Shown here piece by piece: positions 40,777-50,251 of a DNA stretch of 64,000 nucleotides. Position 1 is the stretch's first letter. Every line of letters begins with the position of its first letter. Below the pieces are notes generated by a model that saw only the letters and a list, made by a program, of their open reading frames with translations, made no database searches and was not told where the DNA came from. The position numbers and the translations under genes were made by a program. This DNA is from an uncultured Bacteroidaceae bacterium (GTDB lineage Bacteria; Bacteroidota; Bacteroidia; Bacteroidales; SM23-62), in contig CAVVYS010000006.1 of the NCBI GenBank assembly GCA_963752525.1, forward strand, positions 105,194-169,193, written 5' to 3'.

Positions 40777-40948
40777 ATGAATTGGCAGACAGATTGAGCC
40801 GTAGGGGAGCATTCACGATACCTAATAAAACTTATCATTGAAAGAAACTGCCTTTCGGTAGATAAATTCCTTCAATCAATTGATCCCTTTTTTCTAGCAG
40901 TGCCGGATGGGGTAGGTTTGTTTCATAATCCAATAAAAAAATATTGAT

Positions 40949-42298
40949 ATGAAACCTAAAACTACCTTAAGAATAAATACGGTTATCATGGGTCTGCTTA
41001 CAACGATCCTACTTATATATACTAGTTGTGAGGAGATTGGAAGTACTGATATCGATACGATTGAGAACCTTCCGGATATCACCGGATTTCCTGTTGTGGG
41101 GACAAATCAAACCACTTACTTTAACAATTTTACCTCCATTTCGGCTCCTTCAGAAGGAGAATATTTTTATGGCCAGAATGCCACCTACCCGGGAAATACT
41201 CCCAACTATGTGAACAACGGTGATGGCACTGTGACTGATATGGTAAGTGGACTGATGTGGCAGAACTCTTTTGACCACAATGGGGATGGCTCCATTGACT
41301 ATGACGACAAACTCAGCTATGACGAGATCCTGGCCATAGCGGATACAGTGTCAACGGCGGGATATGACGACTGGCGTGTGCCAACAATCAAAGAGCAGTA
41401 TTCGCTGATCATGTTCAGTGGACGCGATATCAGTGGTTATGAAGGCAGCTCCACCGATGACCTGGTCCCTTTTATAAATACAGAATTTTTTGAATACGCG
41501 TATGGTGATACCGATGCCGGCGAACGGCTGATCGATGTGCAGTGTGCCTCCACTAATGTGTATGGTAGCCAGGAGGTTGAAAAGTTGGTCTTCGGCGTCA
41601 ACTTTGCAGATGGCCGCATCAAGGGTTATGGCATGCAGATGATGGGACAGGAGAAGGCCTTCAATTACCTGATGGTTCGTGGCAACCCCTCCTATGGAAT
41701 CAATGAATTTACTGACAATGGTGACGGCACTATCACCGATTACGCCACCGAACTAATGTGGATGCAGGAGGATAACGCCGAAGGTATGCTCTGGAATGAC
41801 GCACTGAACTACGCCGAAAACATGGAATATGCAGGTTATTCTGACTGGCGCCTGCCCGATGCAAAAGAGCTGCAGAGCATTTTAGATTATACACGTTCGC
41901 CGGCCACAAGCAGTTCGGCTGCTATCGACCCGCTCTTTCATTGTACCAAAATTATCAATGAAGCAGGGGAAGATGATTATCCATGCTACTGGAGCAGCAC
42001 CACACATGGGAACTGGACCGAAGGACACGAGGGTGCATGGGGAGCCTATGTCGCATTCGGACGTGCCATGGGAAATATGACTGAGATGCCCGGTGGTCCC
42101 AGCGAAATTCCACCCATGGCTTCAGCCGGCATAAACAGCATCAGTGCCGAAACCAACTGGATCGATGTTCATGGTGCCGGTGCCCAGCGCAGTGATCCAA
42201 AAGCCGGTGATCCGGAAGAATTCTCCAATGGCCATGGTCCTCAGGGTGACGCGGTCCGCATCTACAACTATGTACGCCTTGTGCGGGATGCAAACTAA
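40949..42298 (+). CDS. DUF1566 (Lcl C-terminal, C-type-lectin-like) double-domain lipoprotein
   Basis: Lipobox YTSC; two NGDGT(V/I)TD..LMW(Q/M) ... DWR(V/L)P..KE units; C-terminal YVRLVR; EF-hand-like DHNGDGSIDYDD. Confidence 0.85.
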   Translation: MKPKTTLRINTVIMGLLTTILLIYTSCEEIGSTDIDTIENLPDITGFPVVGTNQTTYFNNFTSISAPSEGEYFYGQNATYPGNTPNYVNNGDGTVTDMVSGLMWQNSFDHNGDGSIDYDDKLSYDEILAIADTVSTAGYDDWRVPTIKEQYSLIMFSGRDISGYEGSSTDDLVPFINTEFFEYAYGDTDAGERLIDVQCASTNVYGSQEVEKLVFGVNFADGRIKGYGMQMMGQEKAFNYLMVRGNPSYGINEFTDNGDGTITDYATELMWMQEDNAEGMLWNDALNYAENMEYAGYSDWRLPDAKELQSILDYTRSPATSSSAAIDPLFHCTKIINEAGEDDYPCYWSSTTHGNWTEGHEGAWGAYVAFGRAMGNMTEMPGGPSEIPPMASAGINSISAETNWIDVHGAGAQRSDPKAGDPEEFSNGHGPQGDAVRIYNYVRLVRDAN

Positions 42299-43049
42299 TT
42301 CTTTTCAATCCATTCAATTGGAGCAGATGAACCAGGTGAAACTGATGAACAGGATCGACAAGAAGTATTGGTTTCACAACGAAAATCTTCAGGGCATACT
42401 TCAATCAGTCAATCAGCACTATTATATTCTGGATATTGAAGGCCAGAATGAGTTTCTCTATACATCTACTTATTACGATACTATGAATAACAGGATGTAC
42501 ATGAAACATCACAATGGTAATTTAAACCGATATAAAATCCGTCGCAGAAATTATATCTCCTCAGAATTAAGCTTTTTGGAGATAAAATTCAAAAACAATA
42601 AGGGGCGAACCATTAAGAAACGCATCCCTGCTGATTATAGGGATTCCTCATTTACCATAGAGGAAAGAGAATTTATTAGAACCCACACACCCTACTCCTG
42701 CAATGACCTGAAACCATCTCTCATTAATGAATTTTCCCGCCGAACCTTGGTAAATAAGAATTTCAAGGAACGATGTACCATCGACCAGAACCTTCAATAT
42801 ACAGTAGGTGGTAAAGGGGTTACCCTGGAAAATCTGATCATTATAGAAATCAAATCTGAAGGAAATTCGTCGATTTCACCGCTAACACTCGCTTTAAGAG
42901 AGGAGCATATCAGGGTATCCGGATTCAGCAAATATTGTGTGGGGCGAGCCATCACAGCGCAGAATTTAAAAAAAAACGCCTTCAAAGGAAAAATAAGAAG
43001 GATAGAAAAAATCATTCATACAAACATCGATTTATATAACAAAAGCTGA
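42288..43049 (+). CDS. VTC domain (polyphosphate polymerase-like, CYTH/TTM fold) protein
   Basis: KLMNRIDKKY, YTSTYYDT, RYKIRRRNY, FLEIKFK..GRTIKKR, ERCTID, IIEIK and FSKYC motifs. The ATG at 42288 overlaps the upstream stop codon. Confidence 0.9.
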   Translation: MQTNSFQSIQLEQMNQVKLMNRIDKKYWFHNENLQGILQSVNQHYYILDIEGQNEFLYTSTYYDTMNNRMYMKHHNGNLNRYKIRRRNYISSELSFLEIKFKNNKGRTIKKRIPADYRDSSFTIEEREFIRTHTPYSCNDLKPSLINEFSRRTLVNKNFKERCTIDQNLQYTVGGKGVTLENLIIIEIKSEGNSSISPLTLALREEHIRVSGFSKYCVGRAITAQNLKKNAFKGKIRRIEKIIHTNIDLYNKS

Positions 43050-43054
43050 AAATC

Positions 43055-43750
43055 ATGATTGCACAAGTCACAGCATTAATTGATACTGTGAGTACCAATA
43101 TCCCTGCTGCAACCGAAGTAGTGAGTTGGGAAGAACAATTCCGGTTACTTGGTATCAAAATAATCAACGTATCCGATTTTATGGAACTCATGCTAAGGTT
43201 TTCCTTTAATACACTCCTGGTGTTTATAGTGGTGCATTTTATGTATGCCAAAAACAGTAAACGCAAAGACTTCTATTTTAGCTACCTGGCAATTGGCGTG
43301 ATCATATTCTTATTGTGCTTCCTGCTTAACAACGTAAAGCTTGAACTGGGATTCGCGTTGGGACTCTTTGCCATTTTCGGCATAATCAGATACAGAACCA
43401 ATACGATTCCAATCAAAGAGATGACTTACCTATTTATTGTCATTGGCATCTCAGTGATGAACGCACTATCCAACAAAAAAGTGAGTTATGTCGAACTAAT
43501 GTTTACCAACACAGCTATTATCTTCGGTCTATGGATTCTGGAAAAAAGGCTGATGCTGAAACAGGAAGGATCGGTCAAATTGATTTATGAGCGGATTGAA
43601 AACATTCATACTGACAGTGAGGAGACCTTAATGGAAGATCTTAGAAACCGCACCGGAATCAACATTAAACGTTATGAAATTGGAAAGATCGACTTCCTTC
43701 GAGACATAGCAGAGATCACGCTCTTTTTCAACATTAACGGACAAGATTAA
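43055..43750 (+). CDS. DUF4956 membrane protein
   Basis: LGFALGLFAIFGIIRYRT..IPIKEMTYLF signature; several TM helices. Confidence 0.9.
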   Translation: MIAQVTALIDTVSTNIPAATEVVSWEEQFRLLGIKIINVSDFMELMLRFSFNTLLVFIVVHFMYAKNSKRKDFYFSYLAIGVIIFLLCFLLNNVKLELGFALGLFAIFGIIRYRTNTIPIKEMTYLFIVIGISVMNALSNKKVSYVELMFTNTAIIFGLWILEKRLMLKQEGSVKLIYERIENIHTDSEETLMEDLRNRTGINIKRYEIGKIDFLRDIAEITLFFNINGQD

Positions 43751-43754
43751 CGAA

Positions 43755-44441
43755 ATGAAGTCAATGAAAAACATACACATAATAGCTATTCGTAAACTAT
43801 TGCTCCTTTTGGGAGTTCTATTTGCAGGTCAAGTGTATTCCCAGACTGAAGAAAATGAATCTCAAGCTGTCGAGAATGATTTTCAGACACGTACAGAATT
43901 GCAATTAAGCTTTAGTCCGGTTAAAAAGCTTCGAATAACTTTTATACCTGAGTTGAGACTGGACGAATCATTTAATGTTGATAAATATCTCCTGGAAACC
44001 GAACTTTCCTACAAGCCTATCAAGGACTTGTCGCTCAGCGGTAGCTATCGGTTTATCTTAAATCCCAGAGACAATAAATCCACTGAGTACCTGCATCGTT
44101 TTGCATTCGCAGCAGACTATTCAAAAAGCATCAAGAGATGGGAGCCATCATTCAGAATTAAATATACCAATTACACCGAAGATATCTCCAATGGAGAATT
44201 TCTCAGGTACAGGGCCAAACTGGAGTATGATATAAAAAATTTCAAGTTAACTCCCTTTATAAGAGCCGAGGGGTTTCATGATCTCGCGGAAAATGAAATG
44301 TACAAAATGCGATATGCCCTGGGGGGGAGATATAAATTAAACAAAAACAACTCAGTCAAAATCGGGTATATGCTTGATTATTACCTGCAGGAATACCGGA
44401 ATAAACATATATTATCTATTGGTTACAGCATAAAATTCTAG
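43755..44441 (+). CDS. DUF2490-like outer-membrane beta-barrel protein
   Basis: Signal peptide, alternating amphipathic strands, LRYRAKLEY and C-terminal IGYSIKF. Confidence 0.75.
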   Translation: MKSMKNIHIIAIRKLLLLLGVLFAGQVYSQTEENESQAVENDFQTRTELQLSFSPVKKLRITFIPELRLDESFNVDKYLLETELSYKPIKDLSLSGSYRFILNPRDNKSTEYLHRFAFAADYSKSIKRWEPSFRIKYTNYTEDISNGEFLRYRAKLEYDIKNFKLTPFIRAEGFHDLAENEMYKMRYALGGRYKLNKNNSVKIGYMLDYYLQEYRNKHILSIGYSIKF

Positions 44442-44445
44442 TCAT

Positions 44446-45837
44446 ATGAACAAAGAACAGCATAACAAAATGAGTCTATTCATTGGTTCTCTATTAATTG
44501 CATTGGCTATGCTTGGTGCATGCCGTAAAGATGACTCAAACATCATCCTGACAAACCTGGACGATTGGACTGAAGAGACCCACAGCAATACTGCAGACCC
44601 CAATTACGAGCTTGTATTTGATCATGGTGAAGTGGTCCGATTCGATATTGTAATAGATCCCGATGACTGGTCCGACATGCAAGCCGATCTTGACGCCAAC
44701 CTGGGCTCAACGGGAGGAAGACCCGGGGGCGGCATGCCAGGTCCTGGTGCAACCTCGGATTACACTCCCATCTGGGTCCCCTGTTCCTTCTTTTTTAATG
44801 ACACTGAGTGGTACCATGTAGGCATCCGCTATAAGGGCAATTCCAGTTTAAGATCATCCTACCAGATGGGCATAGAGAAACTTTCATTGAAACTTGACTT
44901 TGATGAATATGAAGATGACTATCCTGAAATTACAAACCAGCGCTTCTACGGATTCAGACAGTTGAACCTGAAAAATAACTATGATGATGCCTCCCTGGTG
45001 CGAGAGAAGGTGGGTGCGGACCTGTTCAGGGAATTTGGCCTTGCTTCATCCAAAACAGCCTTCTGTGTGGTCTATGTGGACCACGGATCCGGACCAATAT
45101 ATTATGGGGTTTATACCCTGGTGGAGGAAGTGGATGATACCGTACTGGATGGTCAGTTCGAAAGGGGTGGGGGGAACCTCTACAAGCCGGACGGCTTAGC
45201 AGCCAGTTTTGCAGCCGGCAGCTATAACGAATCCCAGATAGAGAAAAAAAATAATGAAGAGCTTGGCAATTATTCAGATGTGTACGCTCTTTATACTGCT
45301 ATCAACAGTGCGGACAGGACCTCTGACAGTGAATCATGGAAGGCTGAACTCAACGTTTGCTTTGATGTGGAAACATTTCTCCGCTGGCTGGCTTCAAATA
45401 CAGCCATGCAGAACTGGGATACATATGGAATAATGACCCACAATTACTACCTCTATAATAATCCGGTCAATGGATTGCTCACCTGGATCCCCTGGGACAA
45501 TAATGAAGCCCTCCAGGAAGGAAAACAGGGAGGTGCCCTTAGCCTCTCACTTGGAGAGGTGGGTAGCAACTGGCCCTTGATTCGCTACCTGGTGGATGTG
45601 GACGAATACATACCTATCTATAAAAATTATCTGCTTGAATTTAAAGAAGGCGTTTTTGCCCCGGAAAGAATGACTACCCTCTACAGTAATTACCAGACCC
45701 TTTTACAGGAGTATGCCTATGCTGAAAACTCCCCTTATACATTCATTCGGTCCGATGCTGCATTTGATGCAGCCATTGAGGAGTTGAAGCAACATGTGCA
45801 GGCAAGGGCCAGTGCCGTTCAAAGCTATTTGGAATAA
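44446..45837 (+). CDS. CotH kinase family lipoprotein
   Basis: Lipobox LGAC; VGIRYKGNSS, SLKLDFD, YGVYTLVEEVD, NWDTY..THNYYLY and IPWDNNEAL motifs. Confidence 0.92.
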   Translation: MNKEQHNKMSLFIGSLLIALAMLGACRKDDSNIILTNLDDWTEETHSNTADPNYELVFDHGEVVRFDIVIDPDDWSDMQADLDANLGSTGGRPGGGMPGPGATSDYTPIWVPCSFFFNDTEWYHVGIRYKGNSSLRSSYQMGIEKLSLKLDFDEYEDDYPEITNQRFYGFRQLNLKNNYDDASLVREKVGADLFREFGLASSKTAFCVVYVDHGSGPIYYGVYTLVEEVDDTVLDGQFERGGGNLYKPDGLAASFAAGSYNESQIEKKNNEELGNYSDVYALYTAINSADRTSDSESWKAELNVCFDVETFLRWLASNTAMQNWDTYGIMTHNYYLYNNPVNGLLTWIPWDNNEALQEGKQGGALSLSLGEVGSNWPLIRYLVDVDEYIPIYKNYLLEFKEGVFAPERMTTLYSNYQTLLQEYAYAENSPYTFIRSDAAFDAAIEELKQHVQARASAVQSYLE

Positions 45838-45856
45838 GCAATATATTCACCAACTT

Positions 45857-45864
45857 TACCTTTG
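45857..45864 (+). promoter_or_regulatory. Bacteroidota primary-sigma -7 promoter element
   Basis: TACCTTTG matches TAnnTTTG and lies just upstream of the ATG at 45871. Confidence 0.5.
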
Positions 45865-45870
45865 CCTTCT

Positions 45871-47043
45871 ATGCGCAGGAATCTGAAAAAAAATAAGCTC
45901 AATCACCTTAAGTACCTGGGGCCCTCAATCTCCATCGTATTCTGGCTCCTTTTGTTTGCTTCCCCATTGATCTTTGGAAATTTTGAAGAGGGAATAGACT
46001 GGGAACATATTCTCAAAGTTTGGAGGTCCTTCATCCCCTACCTGGCCCTTTTCCTGTTAAACAGGTTTGTGTTCCTGCCCTTTTTCTTCTTTCGCGGAAA
46101 ACGCTGGGTCTATTTCATAAGCAATGTGGTTTTGATCCTGGGGGTGGCCATAGGGGTGCATTTCTACCGTACCAATGTAATCCAGCCTCAGCCTCCGGAA
46201 AACCGGAAAGAGGCCTTAGCCCCCCGACGAGAAGCTCCTCCGGGAGAGAGACCGCCTGTTCCGGGAGAAAGGCCCCCAAGGTTACGGGAAAATCCACCAC
46301 CACCCAGAGGAAGGGATGGTTTACCCCCGATCCAGGAAGCTCCCAAACAACTTCCACCTTTTCTCAGCTTTATCGTAGTCTCTGTTTTAATAGTTGGATT
46401 TGATACGGGTTTGATGATCTCAGTAAAATGGACTCAATCGGAGCAAAAACGGTTCCGTGCTGAAAAAGAGAATACAGAGTCGCAGCTCGCATTTCTGCGC
46501 AACCAGGTGAGTCCCCACTTCTTTATGAATACCCTCAACAATATCCATTCACTTATTGATATCAATCCTACCGAGGCCAAAGAGGCCATCATCAAGCTCT
46601 CAAAGCTTATGCGTCACCTGCTTTATGATTCAGAGGTGAATCAGATCCCATTGAAAAAAGAGATTGAATTTATCGGTAACTATGTGGAACTGATGAGATT
46701 GAGATACTCAGAGAAAGTGAAGGTAGAATTTCATATTCCTGGTCAGATCCCTGAGAAAAAAATACCTCCCCTGCTATTTACCTCTTTTGTGGAGAACGCT
46801 TTTAAGCATGGTATCAGCTATCAGGAATCATCATATATTGAAATTACCTTCTTATATGAATCCGGTCAGCTCTTTTTTATTATTAAAAACAGCAATCCGG
46901 GAATTAAAAAAGAACAGGGGCCCTCTGGTATCGGAATTGAGAACTCCCGAAAAAGGCTGGATCTCATCTACGGTGACAGATATGCACTGAACATTGTGGA
47001 CGGGAAGAAGGAATTTACAGTAACGTTAAAAATACCGGTATGA
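45871..47043 (+). CDS. LytS/YehU-type sensor histidine kinase
   Basis: TM helices; LRNQVSPHFFMNTLNNI, PPLLFTSFVENAFKHG and GIGIENSRKRL motifs. Confidence 0.93.
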   Translation: MRRNLKKNKLNHLKYLGPSISIVFWLLLFASPLIFGNFEEGIDWEHILKVWRSFIPYLALFLLNRFVFLPFFFFRGKRWVYFISNVVLILGVAIGVHFYRTNVIQPQPPENRKEALAPRREAPPGERPPVPGERPPRLRENPPPPRGRDGLPPIQEAPKQLPPFLSFIVVSVLIVGFDTGLMISVKWTQSEQKRFRAEKENTESQLAFLRNQVSPHFFMNTLNNIHSLIDINPTEAKEAIIKLSKLMRHLLYDSEVNQIPLKKEIEFIGNYVELMRLRYSEKVKVEFHIPGQIPEKKIPPLLFTSFVENAFKHGISYQESSYIEITFLYESGQLFFIIKNSNPGIKKEQGPSGIGIENSRKRLDLIYGDRYALNIVDGKKEFTVTLKIPV

Positions 47044-47756
47044 TACGCTGCATCGCCATCGACGATGAACCCCTTGCCCTGAAACAGATGGCCGGATACA
47101 TTCAAAAGACACCTTTCCTTGAATTGGAAGGGCAGTTTGATAGTGCCCTTCAGGCCATCTCATGGCTACAGGAGAACCAGGCGGACCTGATGTTCGTTGA
47201 CATCAACATGCCCGATCTGAGCGGGATGGATTTTGTGAAATCCATGAAAAGCCCTCCCGGGGTTATCTTCACGACAGCATACAGCGAGTATGCCCTGGAG
47301 GGATTCCGGGTGGATGCCATCGATTACCTGCTCAAACCCATAGGCTATGGGGACTTCTTAAAGGCGGCCGAAAAAGCCCTGGTAAGAATCAGCGCAAAAC
47401 AGAAAGAGACACTCCGGATTGAAAGCGATGAGAATTTCCTTTTTATTAAGTCGGAGTACAAGATCCTGCGGATCAATCTGTCCGATATCAAGTATATTGA
47501 AGGAATGCGTGAGTATGTACGAATCCACATGGAAAATCAACGTCCGGTGATGACCCTGATGAGTATGAAAAAAATAGAAGCATTTCTTCCTCAGCAAAGT
47601 TTTATGAGAGTGCATCGCTCCTACATAGTGAACCTGAAGAAGGTCAACACTATAGAACGCAACCGGATCATCTTTGACGGTAAAGTTTATATCCCCGTCA
47701 GTGAACAGTATAAAAATGCTTTTCAGGAATTCCTGGACAAGAACTTCCTGACCTGA
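47040..47756 (+). CDS. LytTR-family response regulator
   Basis: AIDDEPLAL, FVDINMP, IFTTAY, DYLLKP and FMRVHRSYIVN motifs; ATGA overlap with the kinase. Confidence 0.95.
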   Translation: MIRCIAIDDEPLALKQMAGYIQKTPFLELEGQFDSALQAISWLQENQADLMFVDINMPDLSGMDFVKSMKSPPGVIFTTAYSEYALEGFRVDAIDYLLKPIGYGDFLKAAEKALVRISAKQKETLRIESDENFLFIKSEYKILRINLSDIKYIEGMREYVRIHMENQRPVMTLMSMKKIEAFLPQQSFMRVHRSYIVNLKKVNTIERNRIIFDGKVYIPVSEQYKNAFQEFLDKNFLT

Positions 47757-48883: not shown

Positions 48884-50251
48884 GTGAGACAATTCCAGAG
48901 AATCTTACTTTTTGTAGCTGTTTTGATACCCCAGGTAGTATTTTACTCGTGCCGGAAGGTACCGGAAGGTTATGCAGCATCGGACAAATACAGGCTCGTT
49001 TGGACCAGTGATCCTTCCACTACCCTCACCATTGCCTGGGATCAGCTTGATGGCACCACAGGAGAAGTTTATTATGGCCAGGTTGACCTGGGACGAAAGT
49101 ACTGGAAGTACCCTGAATCCCAGGCTCCGCAGGATGTAATGGACAGGTATGATATGCATACACGATTTGCGAAAATATCCGAACTTTCTCCCGGCACCAA
49201 TTATTATTTTGTGATACGGGACAATAGCGGGGTTAGCAAACGCTACTGGTTTAAAACGGCACCAGCCCTACCAGAACAATTTACCTTTGTTGCGGGAGGT
49301 GATACCAAAAGTGCTGATGAACCTCTGGAAGCAGGCAGGGCATCCAACAGGCTGGTGTCTAAATTAAGACCGCTATTTGTCATATACAACGGTGATTTCA
49401 CCAGCGGTGACGGGACTGATCCCGATAACTGGAAAAAATGGCTGCACGACTGGCATACACTCACCACTGCCGATGATGGCCTCATGATCCCAATATTCCC
49501 GGTGATGGGTAACCACGAGAGAGGGAATTTGCGAAACCTGAATATCATATTCAATGCTCCATATCAGAATAACGATACTACACATATTTACAATTCGCTA
49601 AATGTGGGAGATAACCTGCTGCATATGATTGCGCTGAACTCAGAGATCAGGACGGACTCCCTGCAGAAAGAATGGTTGATTAGGGACCTTGAAGTACACC
49701 GTGATTTTCAGTTTAAAATAGCAGGGTATCATAAACCGTTCTTCCCTCATACCCAGCGCAAATCTGAAAAACCACATATCTATAACTCCTGGGCCCAGGT
49801 ATTCTATGATTTCGGATTGGCCCTGTCCCTTGATGCGGATTCGCATATGCATAAAATTACTTTCCCCTTAAAACCTGATTCTTCCGACCAGGCATATTCG
49901 GGATTTATCAGGGACGATATAAACGGTACTATGTTTGTTGGCGAAGGAAGCTGGGGAGCCTGGCCGAGAGACAACAATGATGATAAACCCTGGACCTTGA
50001 CCAGCGGCAGCTTTAACCAGATCAAATGGATCCATGTTTTCCCGGAAAAGGAAGATATGGAAGCCCACATGGATATATATACGGTTATATCATGCGTGTA
50101 TGACGAAAATGATAAACAGTCCTTCTATGATGATATAGAAGCATTGCATGAAGAGAATTTATTCAGCCTTCCCGAGGGTATCCACCTGCACCAGATGGAA
50201 ACTTATGGAAACGTCGTAAAATACCCTTTTCATCTTAACGAAGAAGAGTGA
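48884..50251 (+). CDS. Purple-acid-phosphatase-like metallophosphoesterase lipoprotein with an N-terminal FN3-like domain
   Basis: Lipobox FYSC; LSPGTNYYF; GGDT, NGDF, MGNHE and GYHKP motifs. Confidence 0.85.
   Translation: MRQFQRILLFVAVLIPQVVFYSCRKVPEGYAASDKYRLVWTSDPSTTLTIAWDQLDGTTGEVYYGQVDLGRKYWKYPESQAPQDVMDRYDMHTRFAKISELSPGTNYYFVIRDNSGVSKRYWFKTAPALPEQFTFVAGGDTKSADEPLEAGRASNRLVSKLRPLFVIYNGDFTSGDGTDPDNWKKWLHDWHTLTTADDGLMIPIFPVMGNHERGNLRNLNIIFNAPYQNNDTTHIYNSLNVGDNLLHMIALNSEIRTDSLQKEWLIRDLEVHRDFQFKIAGYHKPFFPHTQRKSEKPHIYNSWAQVFYDFGLALSLDADSHMHKITFPLKPDSSDQAYSGFIRDDINGTMFVGEGSWGAWPRDNNDDKPWTLTSGSFNQIKWIHVFPEKEDMEAHMDIYTVISCVYDENDKQSFYDDIEALHEENLFSLPEGIHLHQMETYGNVVKYPFHLNEEE

Follow-up and report, generated by a model that had tools for sequence, protein, structure and literature searches.

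A VTC, DUF4956 and DUF2490 gene cluster of an uncultured Bacteroidaceae bacterium as a candidate system for polyphosphate synthesis and export

A set of seven genes on the forward strand of a 64,000-nucleotide stretch of DNA from an uncultured Bacteroidaceae bacterium (positions 105,194 to 169,193 of contig CAVVYS010000006.1, assembly GCA_963752525.1; this whole stretch is hereafter called the window) encodes a putative system for the synthesis and export of polyphosphate (polyP). In the list of open reading frames (ORFs) of the window, the cluster extends from 40949 to 47756 (+ strand) and consists, in this order, of a lipoprotein with two lectin-like Lcl_C (DUF1566) domains (40949-42298; Pfam, 128.7 bits over two stretches), a stand-alone cytoplasmic VTC-domain protein of the triphosphate tunnel fold (42288-43049; Pfam VTC, 102.9 bits for a cut-off of 23), an inner-membrane protein of the DUF4956 family (43055-43750; PF16316, 172.2 bits, cut-off 30.6), an outer-membrane beta-barrel of the DUF2490 subfamily (43755-44441; PF10677, 64.2 bits, cut-off 29.8), an atypical kinase of the CotH family that is also a lipoprotein (44446-45837; PF08757, 238.3 bits), a LytS-type membrane histidine kinase (45862-47043; His_kinase, PF06580, 85.2 bits), and a LytTR-type response regulator (47040-47756; Response_reg, 68.9 bits, and LytTR, 83.2 bits). 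The Pfam assignments of all seven ORFs exceed the curated cut-offs, and NCBIfam holds no model for the five structural genes. An 11-bp overlap and then gaps of 5, 4, and 4 bp separate these five genes, a gap of 24 bp lies between the genes for CotH and the histidine kinase, and the ORFs of the kinase and the regulator overlap by 4 bp. A first-pass annotation of the window, made from the sequence alone, had described five tightly coupled genes followed by a two-component pair, and its coordinates, spacing, lipoboxes, and catalytic motifs were all recovered in our analysis. The arrangement is far from chance, as the seven-gene order of the window is found again in three related loci (L015, L018, and L019) and parts of it occur in dozens of others.

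The VTC protein, predicted to be a polyP polymerase, is 253 amino acids long and consists of the VTC domain only. Inspection of its N-terminus and of its hydrophobicity reveals neither a signal peptide nor a hydrophobic segment, and based on Pfam and hydrophobicity it carries neither an SPX domain nor a fused C-terminal membrane domain. The start codon at 42288, from which the 11-bp overlap stems, is backed by homologues, in which the first 14 residues are conserved. Homologues with a species name belong to Saccharicrinis, Labilibaculum, and Puteibacter, which marks the genome as one of a Marinilabiliales-type member of the Bacteroidota. The public gene call (P0001, 240 aa) begins at 42327, 13 codons past this conserved start, and would hide the overlap. 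No match to solved structures was obtained with the single sequence (phmmer), and only a partial one with a narrow profile (E 0.007); a wider profile built from 20 diverse VTC homologues aligned end to end with yeast Vtc4 (3g3q, E 1.2e-11), and the only solved relatives found for the profile were Vtc4 and Vtc2. According to the accessible text of a cryo-EM preprint on the yeast VTC complex, the triphosphate ligands of Vtc4 are K200, R264, R266, K281, R361, K458, S457, and Y359, with E426 as a Mn ligand, and K458, present in the catalytic Vtc4, is the single one of these residues not shared by the inactive Vtc2/3. In the profile alignment with 3g3q, eight of these nine ligands are kept in the window protein, including the equivalent of K458 (K26=K200, R85=R264, R87=R266, K100=K281, R151=R361, E187=E426, S214=S457, and K215=K458), in agreement with the earlier description of a cytoplasmic enzyme with the basic residues of the tunnel. 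The same genome has two matches to PPK1 and five to PPK2 and is without a Ppx-GppA match. As it already has PPK1 and PPK2, the VTC protein would be an extra, specialised enzyme and not its sole route to polyP.

The DUF4956 protein, predicted to be the membrane partner of VTC or a translocase, was modelled with AlphaFold2 from 71 sequences (pLDDT 87.8). The model contains five helices (residues 39-67, 71-92, 97-112, 120-138, and 145-165) followed by a C-terminal beta-alpha-beta-beta (ACT-like) domain. F108, R112, and R114, which belong to an RYRT motif where helix 3 ends, are invariant in the 71 sequences, and K121 is nearly so. Generic helix bundles were all that a wide search with VIA-align returned (best Z 8.8), and a features search of the ESM Atlas gave no usable match. 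The predicted complex of VTC with DUF4956 obtained a score of 0.00, which counts neither for nor against binding. A kinship with the MgtC family has no support in sequence, as Pfam MgtC (PF02308) gave no match among the 71 sequences at E up to 0.05; no MgtC match is found in the window genome, and one DUF4956 protein from the phylum sample presented below (genome G149) matches weakly (E 2e-4).

The DUF2490 protein carries a cleavable-type signal peptide and ends in ...SIKF, with a terminal phenylalanine. Its model is a confident small beta-barrel (pLDDT 93, 11 DSSP strands) with best TM-scores to small 12-stranded channels (KdgM 0.58, PcoB 0.50, and NanC 0.47), and in every predicted strand the residues of one parity are hydrophobic and those of the other polar. 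When the orientation towards the lumen is taken from this predicted-strand parity, 11 lumen columns are to at least 70% K/R (R68, R99, R115, R134, K136, R151, R153, K184, R186, K194, and K227) and three conserved ones are acidic (D/E), which leaves the window protein with a net lumen charge of +9. R99, R151, and E172 are invariant in 41 barrel sequences, and Pfam reports no Porin_O_P (PF07396) match for the window barrel. Among 14 control genomes, DUF2490 was matched only in the two diderm ones; VTC, DUF4956, and CotH were also matched in C. glutamicum and M. acetivorans. The restriction of DUF2490 to diderms, predicted in the first-pass annotation, thus held in these 14 control genomes, on which the test rests, the search for related loci having returned near relatives, mostly Bacteroidota. 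Its suggestion that DUF2490 is the outer-membrane conduit is consistent with the barrel model, with the conserved basic lumen, and with the replacement of the barrel elsewhere by an adaptor or by a weak Porin_O_P-type barrel, as described below.

Eighty related loci, mostly from Bacteroidia, were gathered with the DUF4956 alignment and scanned with local HMMs. In 77 of them, DUF4956 is immediately preceded by VTC, two more being cut by contig ends and one (L045) being without VTC. A DUF2490-type barrel adjoins the pair in 60/80 loci, directly downstream of DUF4956 in 57 and directly upstream of VTC in three. An adaptor adjacent to VTC was found in none of these barrel-type loci (0/80), nor in the window. 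The conserved core of the system is formed by VTC, DUF4956, and the DUF2490 barrel. Three apparent fusions (P0139, DUF4956 with CotH; P0146 and P0204, DUF4956 with DUF2490) were rejected because the half behind DUF4956 retains a signal peptide or lipobox of its own; in these calls, neighbouring genes have most likely been merged, and they were counted only as adjacency.

For 151 genomes sampled evenly from the phylum, we give counts only, since related genomes are not independent: VTC was found in 27 genomes, DUF4956 in 48, CotH in 57, and DUF2490 in 48. All 27 VTC genomes also have DUF4956 and CotH, and 29 of the 31 VTC matches lie, by their coordinates, directly upstream of a DUF4956 match. 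Together with the 77/80 loci above, this bears on the call of the first-pass annotation for a neighbourhood survey, VTC and DUF4956 forming a nearly obligate pair. DUF4956 and CotH occur together in 45 genomes, DUF4956 only in three, CotH only in 12, and neither in 91. We examined the arrangement of 23 VTC loci of this sample, from other classes. Fifteen of them encode a single-pass HlyD-like protein of about 355 aa directly upstream of VTC, two a DUF2490 barrel, and one (G149) a 334-aa protein in the position of the barrel with a weak Porin_O_P match (22.0 bits, cut-off 20.9); the VTC-DUF4956 pair stands alone in four, and in the remaining one (G057) CotH lies between DUF4956 and VTC in a polysaccharide-type cluster (Wzy_C, methyltransferase, GNAT). 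The 15 upstream proteins all match NCBIfam models of the "secretion protein HlyD" or RND_mfp type below the cut-offs (best E 2.8e-15), and a profile made of these adaptors matches the solved ZneB (3.9e-7) and AcrA (4e-6), as well as EmrA and MacA. Barrel and adaptor never occur in one locus, and the VTC operons examined encode no integral inner-membrane protein other than DUF4956. The strongest argument for export comes from this pattern, since two or three unrelated envelope-crossing parts are swapped for one another beside VTC-DUF4956, with DUF4956 as the sole inner-membrane protein.

The setting of the G057 cluster (C20; L100:5501-12580), in which DUF4956 is followed by a CotH of 900 aa that bears a beta-helix and then by VTC, and which also contains C-methyltransferase and GNAT/FemAB-type genes, is that of a surface polysaccharide, akin to Gram-positive pel loci.

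Based on sequence, predicted structure, and gene order, we propose, at slightly below even confidence, that VTC and DUF4956 make polyP and pass it across the inner membrane, that DUF2490 is the conduit through the outer membrane, and that CotH and Lcl_C have accessory roles at the surface. The conserved catalytic residues suggest that the cytoplasmic VTC protein would polymerise polyP from ATP like yeast Vtc4. It would hand the growing chain to DUF4956, with its invariant arginines, which would in turn pass it to the periplasm, a step to which gene linkage points. The Arg/Lys-lined barrel, as judged from structure prediction and conservation, could let the polyanion cross the outer membrane, and in other lineages of the phylum an HlyD-like periplasmic adaptor would bridge instead. 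The CotH and Lcl_C lipoproteins might work on the exported polymer, or together with it, at the cell surface, and the LytS/LytTR pair probably controls the operon. In the first-pass annotation, VTC and DUF4956 were seen as a split VTC-like synthase/translocator. The nearly obligate pairing and the Vtc4-type residues are in line with this idea, but DUF4956 has no detectable likeness to the membrane domain of yeast VTC, so that "split VTC" has to be understood as an analogy and not as homology.

Several observations weigh against this proposal. A Foldseek search of the PDB with DUF4956 gave no row at E up to 0.001, be it to the yeast VTC channel or to solved transporters; its likeness to yeast VTC is thus a functional analogy at most, and the five-helix monomer, as modelled, would have to oligomerise to form a pore. 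The position of Vtc4 Tyr359 is occupied by a phenylalanine (F149 in the window protein), which is invariant across 21 homologues, and the yeast Y359F mutant has lower polyP according to the accessible text of the cryo-EM preprint. Among the 80 related loci, 20 have VTC-DUF4956 without a nearby barrel or adaptor. The window genome itself contains a second VTC-DUF4956 pair (G000:C10:115012-116308; L004:7926-9381) with neither barrel, adaptor, nor CotH, and a third DUF4956 (G000:C27:608255-608767; L005:7211-7876, - strand) that lies behind a HAMP-GAF gene instead of VTC. Genome G135 has DUF4956-DUF2490 convergent with CotH and no VTC match, and in family f25 a partial DUF4956-like gene, without VTC, is found in 16 of 22 genomes, the same 16 that have CotH. 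Finally, for the deletion of VTC in S. intermedius, no change is reported in the available part of PMC12345266.

Further features of these loci can be described. The second pair of the window genome adjoins genes for an M20 peptidase and a citrate lyase, and about 20/80 related loci resemble orthologues of this "pair only" type. The protein ahead of the third DUF4956 is 490 aa long, with HAMP and GAF domains and a stretch of 214 first residues without a family match. The f25 loci G084 (L006:7033-9938) and G108 (L009) are alike, with a DUF4956-like gene followed by an HlyD-like gene and then by a 410-aa, weakly OEP-like (TolC-type) gene.

Genes related to phosphatases are found around some of the clusters. 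In the window, a purple-acid-phosphatase-like lipoprotein (Pur_ac_phosph_N and Metallophos; 48884-50251, +) is encoded two genes downstream of the cluster, and it has no counterpart in the related loci (0/80). A Metallophos/PAP_N gene follows a VTC-less DUF4956 in G111 (L008:8429-9871), and in G105 (L102:5051-5746) a small Metallophos gene lies ahead of the adaptor gene. Phytase-like neighbour genes occur in G025 and G057, and in two adaptor-type loci (L097:8431-9195 and L098:5974-6768) the gene that immediately follows DUF4956 encodes an SdiA-regulated/phytase-like beta-propeller.

The loci in which VTC-DUF4956 has no envelope partner, 20 of the 80 and the C10 pair, would also fit a membrane-tethered synthesis without export, an explanation that we regard as unlikely. 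VTC would then make polyP or turn over triphosphate at the cytoplasmic face, DUF4956 would be an anchor or an ACT-like, ligand-sensing regulator, as proposed for MgtC-type proteins, and the barrel and the adaptors would serve other traffic. The C-terminal beta-alpha-beta-beta domain of DUF4956 indeed resembles ACT-type folds weakly (the aspartate kinase ACT rows of Foldseek have E above 0.5), and the S. intermedius homologue is described, in the part of PMC12345266 available to us, as an MgtC-like transmembrane domain plus an ACT domain, to which the weak MgtC match of the G149 protein can be added. Yet the lack of MgtC matches at E up to 0.05 among the 71 DUF4956 sequences argues against such a kinship, and tethered synthesis leaves the presence of three unrelated, mutually exclusive envelope-crossing components in such operons unexplained. 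Moreover, adaptors are generally known to work with an inner-membrane transporter, for which DUF4956 is the sole candidate.

Acquisition and storage of phosphate seems very unlikely. The basic barrel would here admit phosphate, pyrophosphate, or polyP, DUF4956 would import it, VTC would store it as polyP, and the nearby phosphatases would feed the system. From general knowledge and the accessible text of the cryo-EM preprint, however, Vtc4-type enzymes draw on ATP rather than on free phosphate, and the chain that they extrude moves away from the cytosol, and HlyD-type adaptors are generally regarded as hallmarks of export systems. The lumen of the barrel is basic, as this explanation would have it, the G149 barrel matches Porin_O_P weakly, and phosphatase-type neighbours do recur (in the window, G111, and G105, with the phytase-like ones in G025 and G057), but they are not conserved, the one of the window being absent from all 80 related loci. 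It is likewise highly doubtful that the VTC protein is no polymerase but another triphosphate-tunnel enzyme (a triphosphatase or a nucleotide-acting one) whose product or signal acts through DUF4956, since, even if the CYTH/TTM tunnel fold is generally known to support several chemistries, the Y359 equivalent is a phenylalanine, and the 253-aa protein is without the SPX and membrane domains of Vtc4, it keeps eight of nine substrate and metal ligands, including the K458 missing from the inactive Vtc2/3, and among solved structures Vtc4 and Vtc2 came out as its best matches and as the only ones.

The N-termini of the cluster proteins agree with the places proposed for them. The hydrophobic leader of the Lcl_C protein ends in ..YTSC27 and that of CotH in the lipobox ..LGAC26, in line with the two lipoproteins of the first-pass annotation, and in CotH the cysteine is followed by RKDD, which we take to resemble the surface-export signal of Bacteroidota lipoproteins. 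CotH and Lcl_C are lineage-specific additions to the system and not part of its core. CotH is present in only 23/80 related loci, and the accessory Lcl_C protein is found in nine, travelling with CotH in all of them. The window CotH matches the CotH of B. cereus (5jd9, E 3.9e-17), and its catalytic motifs are intact as described before, with D325 (QNWD) and D351 (PWD) invariant in 26 CotH sequences. By motif and spacing, we presume these two residues to correspond to D228 and D251 of B. subtilis CotH. Mutants of the latter at D228 and D251 are catalytically dead, according to the accessible text of PMC7821199.

In a FastTree phylogeny of 39 CotH domains, the window CotH belongs to a clade of 17 members with an SH-like support of 100 and a stem length of 0.85. 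Every member is encoded within a VTC-DUF4956-DUF2490 locus, and the 13 CotHs from genomes without VTC all fall outside the clade, a result that is favoured by the way in which the in-locus rows of the tree were picked, namely by their closeness to the window. CotH in other loci bears T9SS sorting domains. ATP is not expected outside the cytoplasm, and with CotH being a lipoprotein here and bearing T9SS domains elsewhere, it would thus work where ATP is not expected. As a speculation based on topology, and one that we consider improbable, polyP from VTC, once exported via DUF4956 and DUF2490, could serve as the phosphoryl donor of this dedicated surface CotH clade, with Lcl_C as its substrate or targeting partner. 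If true, this would amount to an ATP-independent phosphorylation of proteins or glycans outside the cytoplasm, and could explain where exported enzymes of the kinase fold find an energy-rich donor. The sample of 151 genomes contains, among its 57 CotH-bearing genomes, 12 with CotH and without DUF4956 or VTC, and 12 of the 13 CotH ORFs from DUF4956-less genomes have a hydrophobic N-terminal leader, the start of the last one being unclear. The occurrence of these leader-bearing proteins indicates that exported CotH does not always depend on the VTC system. Such comparative facts, along with the VTC deletion in S. intermedius as far as it is described in the available part of PMC12345266, speak against a strict dependence of CotH on exported polyP.

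The pair of LytS-type kinase and LytTR-type regulator occurs in 10/80 related loci, nine of which also have CotH. A long proline- and arginine-rich loop of the kinase (residues about 108-165; PPENRKEALAPRREAPPGERPP...) lies between membrane helices, and Pfam reported no 5TM-Lyt sensor domain; the closest NCBIfam model of the regulator is BtsR, below its cut-off. Upstream of the cluster, 29 nt before the first start codon, TAGGTTTG (40913-40920, +) matches TAnnTTTG, which we take to be the -7 promoter motif of Bacteroidota. This is a weak lead, the motif showing no enrichment in the window (47 matches versus 55 expected). A scan for sigma-70 promoters and terminators yielded fewer sites than shuffled sequences did, and so no information.

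Bacterial polyP is ascribed to PPK1 and PPK2, and a VTC-type polymerase is a candidate for a third bacterial route; the literature searched contains no assay of a bacterial polymerase of this type. An operon that unites a polymerase, an inner-membrane protein, and outer-membrane or periplasmic conduits is, moreover, a concrete and testable candidate for a route that would carry polyP to the periplasm, the cell surface, or the medium. The cassette is present in Bacteroides thetaiotaomicron, one of our control genomes, which makes genetics feasible; the available part of PMC10434189 gives BT3498-99 as annotated DUF4956 and DUF2490. No functional account of DUF4956, DUF2490, or CotH in connection with polyphosphate or a bacterial VTC was found in the literature searched. 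This agrees with what the first-pass annotation stated on the co-occurrence of VTC, DUF4956, and CotH, although the co-occurrence itself is already in print, as seen from the accessible parts of the papers cited below.

Among the closest known systems, the pel accessory genes of Gram-positive bacteria resemble the cluster in gene content. The set of cotH, polyP polymerase, and DUF4956 is given as accessory to Gram-positive pel loci in the available part of PMC7112168 and is also found at a Clostridium perfringens locus (PMC2879425, accessible text). The S. intermedius genes SIR_1592-1594 (PMC12345266) likewise bring the same three families together in one operon, with a secreted CotH. In the part of the latter study available to us, strains deleted for the DUF4956 or the CotH homologue aggregated less, by more than 50% in one medium, and had altered Pel levels. 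The window differs in having neither a pel locus nor DUF4832, and adds the DUF2490 barrel, the Lcl_C lipoprotein, and the LytS/LytTR pair. According to the same part of PMC12345266, its authors did not find the triad outside pel loci; unlike this statement, the triad does occur outside pel loci, in the window and in more than 20 loci of our dataset. Bacillus CotH (5jd9) shares the kinase-like domain, and the two invariant aspartates are kept in the QNxD and PWD motifs. It acts in the ATP-containing mother cell, however, whereas the window CotH is a lipoprotein outside the cytoplasm, and the B. subtilis control genome has neither VTC nor DUF4956.

On the side of the envelope components, the operons of relatives encode an HlyD-like adaptor as in tripartite export systems, with a weak OEP-like gene added in one lineage. 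The window, in contrast, has no adaptor, the inner-membrane part is not of the ABC, RND, or MFS type, and the adaptors of the relatives score far below the curated cut-offs. The barrel, with its predicted basic lumen and conserved arginines, resembles the OprP/OprO and KdgM/NanC channels; it is closest to KdgM, PcoB, and NanC in size and fold, and differs from OprP/OprO in the lack of a Porin_O_P sequence match. DUF4956 has a plan similar to that of the MgtC family, several membrane helices and a small cytoplasmic alpha/beta domain, as far as the available part of PMC12345266 describes it, without a sequence match in the 71 DUF4956 sequences. The eukaryotic VTC complex (yeast Vtc4/Vtc3/Vtc1; 3g3q, 7ytj, and 8i6v) resembles the cluster in its catalytic tunnel domain, with eight of nine ligands including K458, and in the logic proposed here, a synthesis coupled to membrane passage. 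In comparison, the bacterial protein is without SPX and without the fused three-helix membrane domain, Tyr359 is replaced by phenylalanine, the membrane partner is encoded by a separate gene of an unrelated family, DUF4956, and outer-membrane or periplasmic partners are added. Collectively, the system of the window is a new variation on the known VTC principle.

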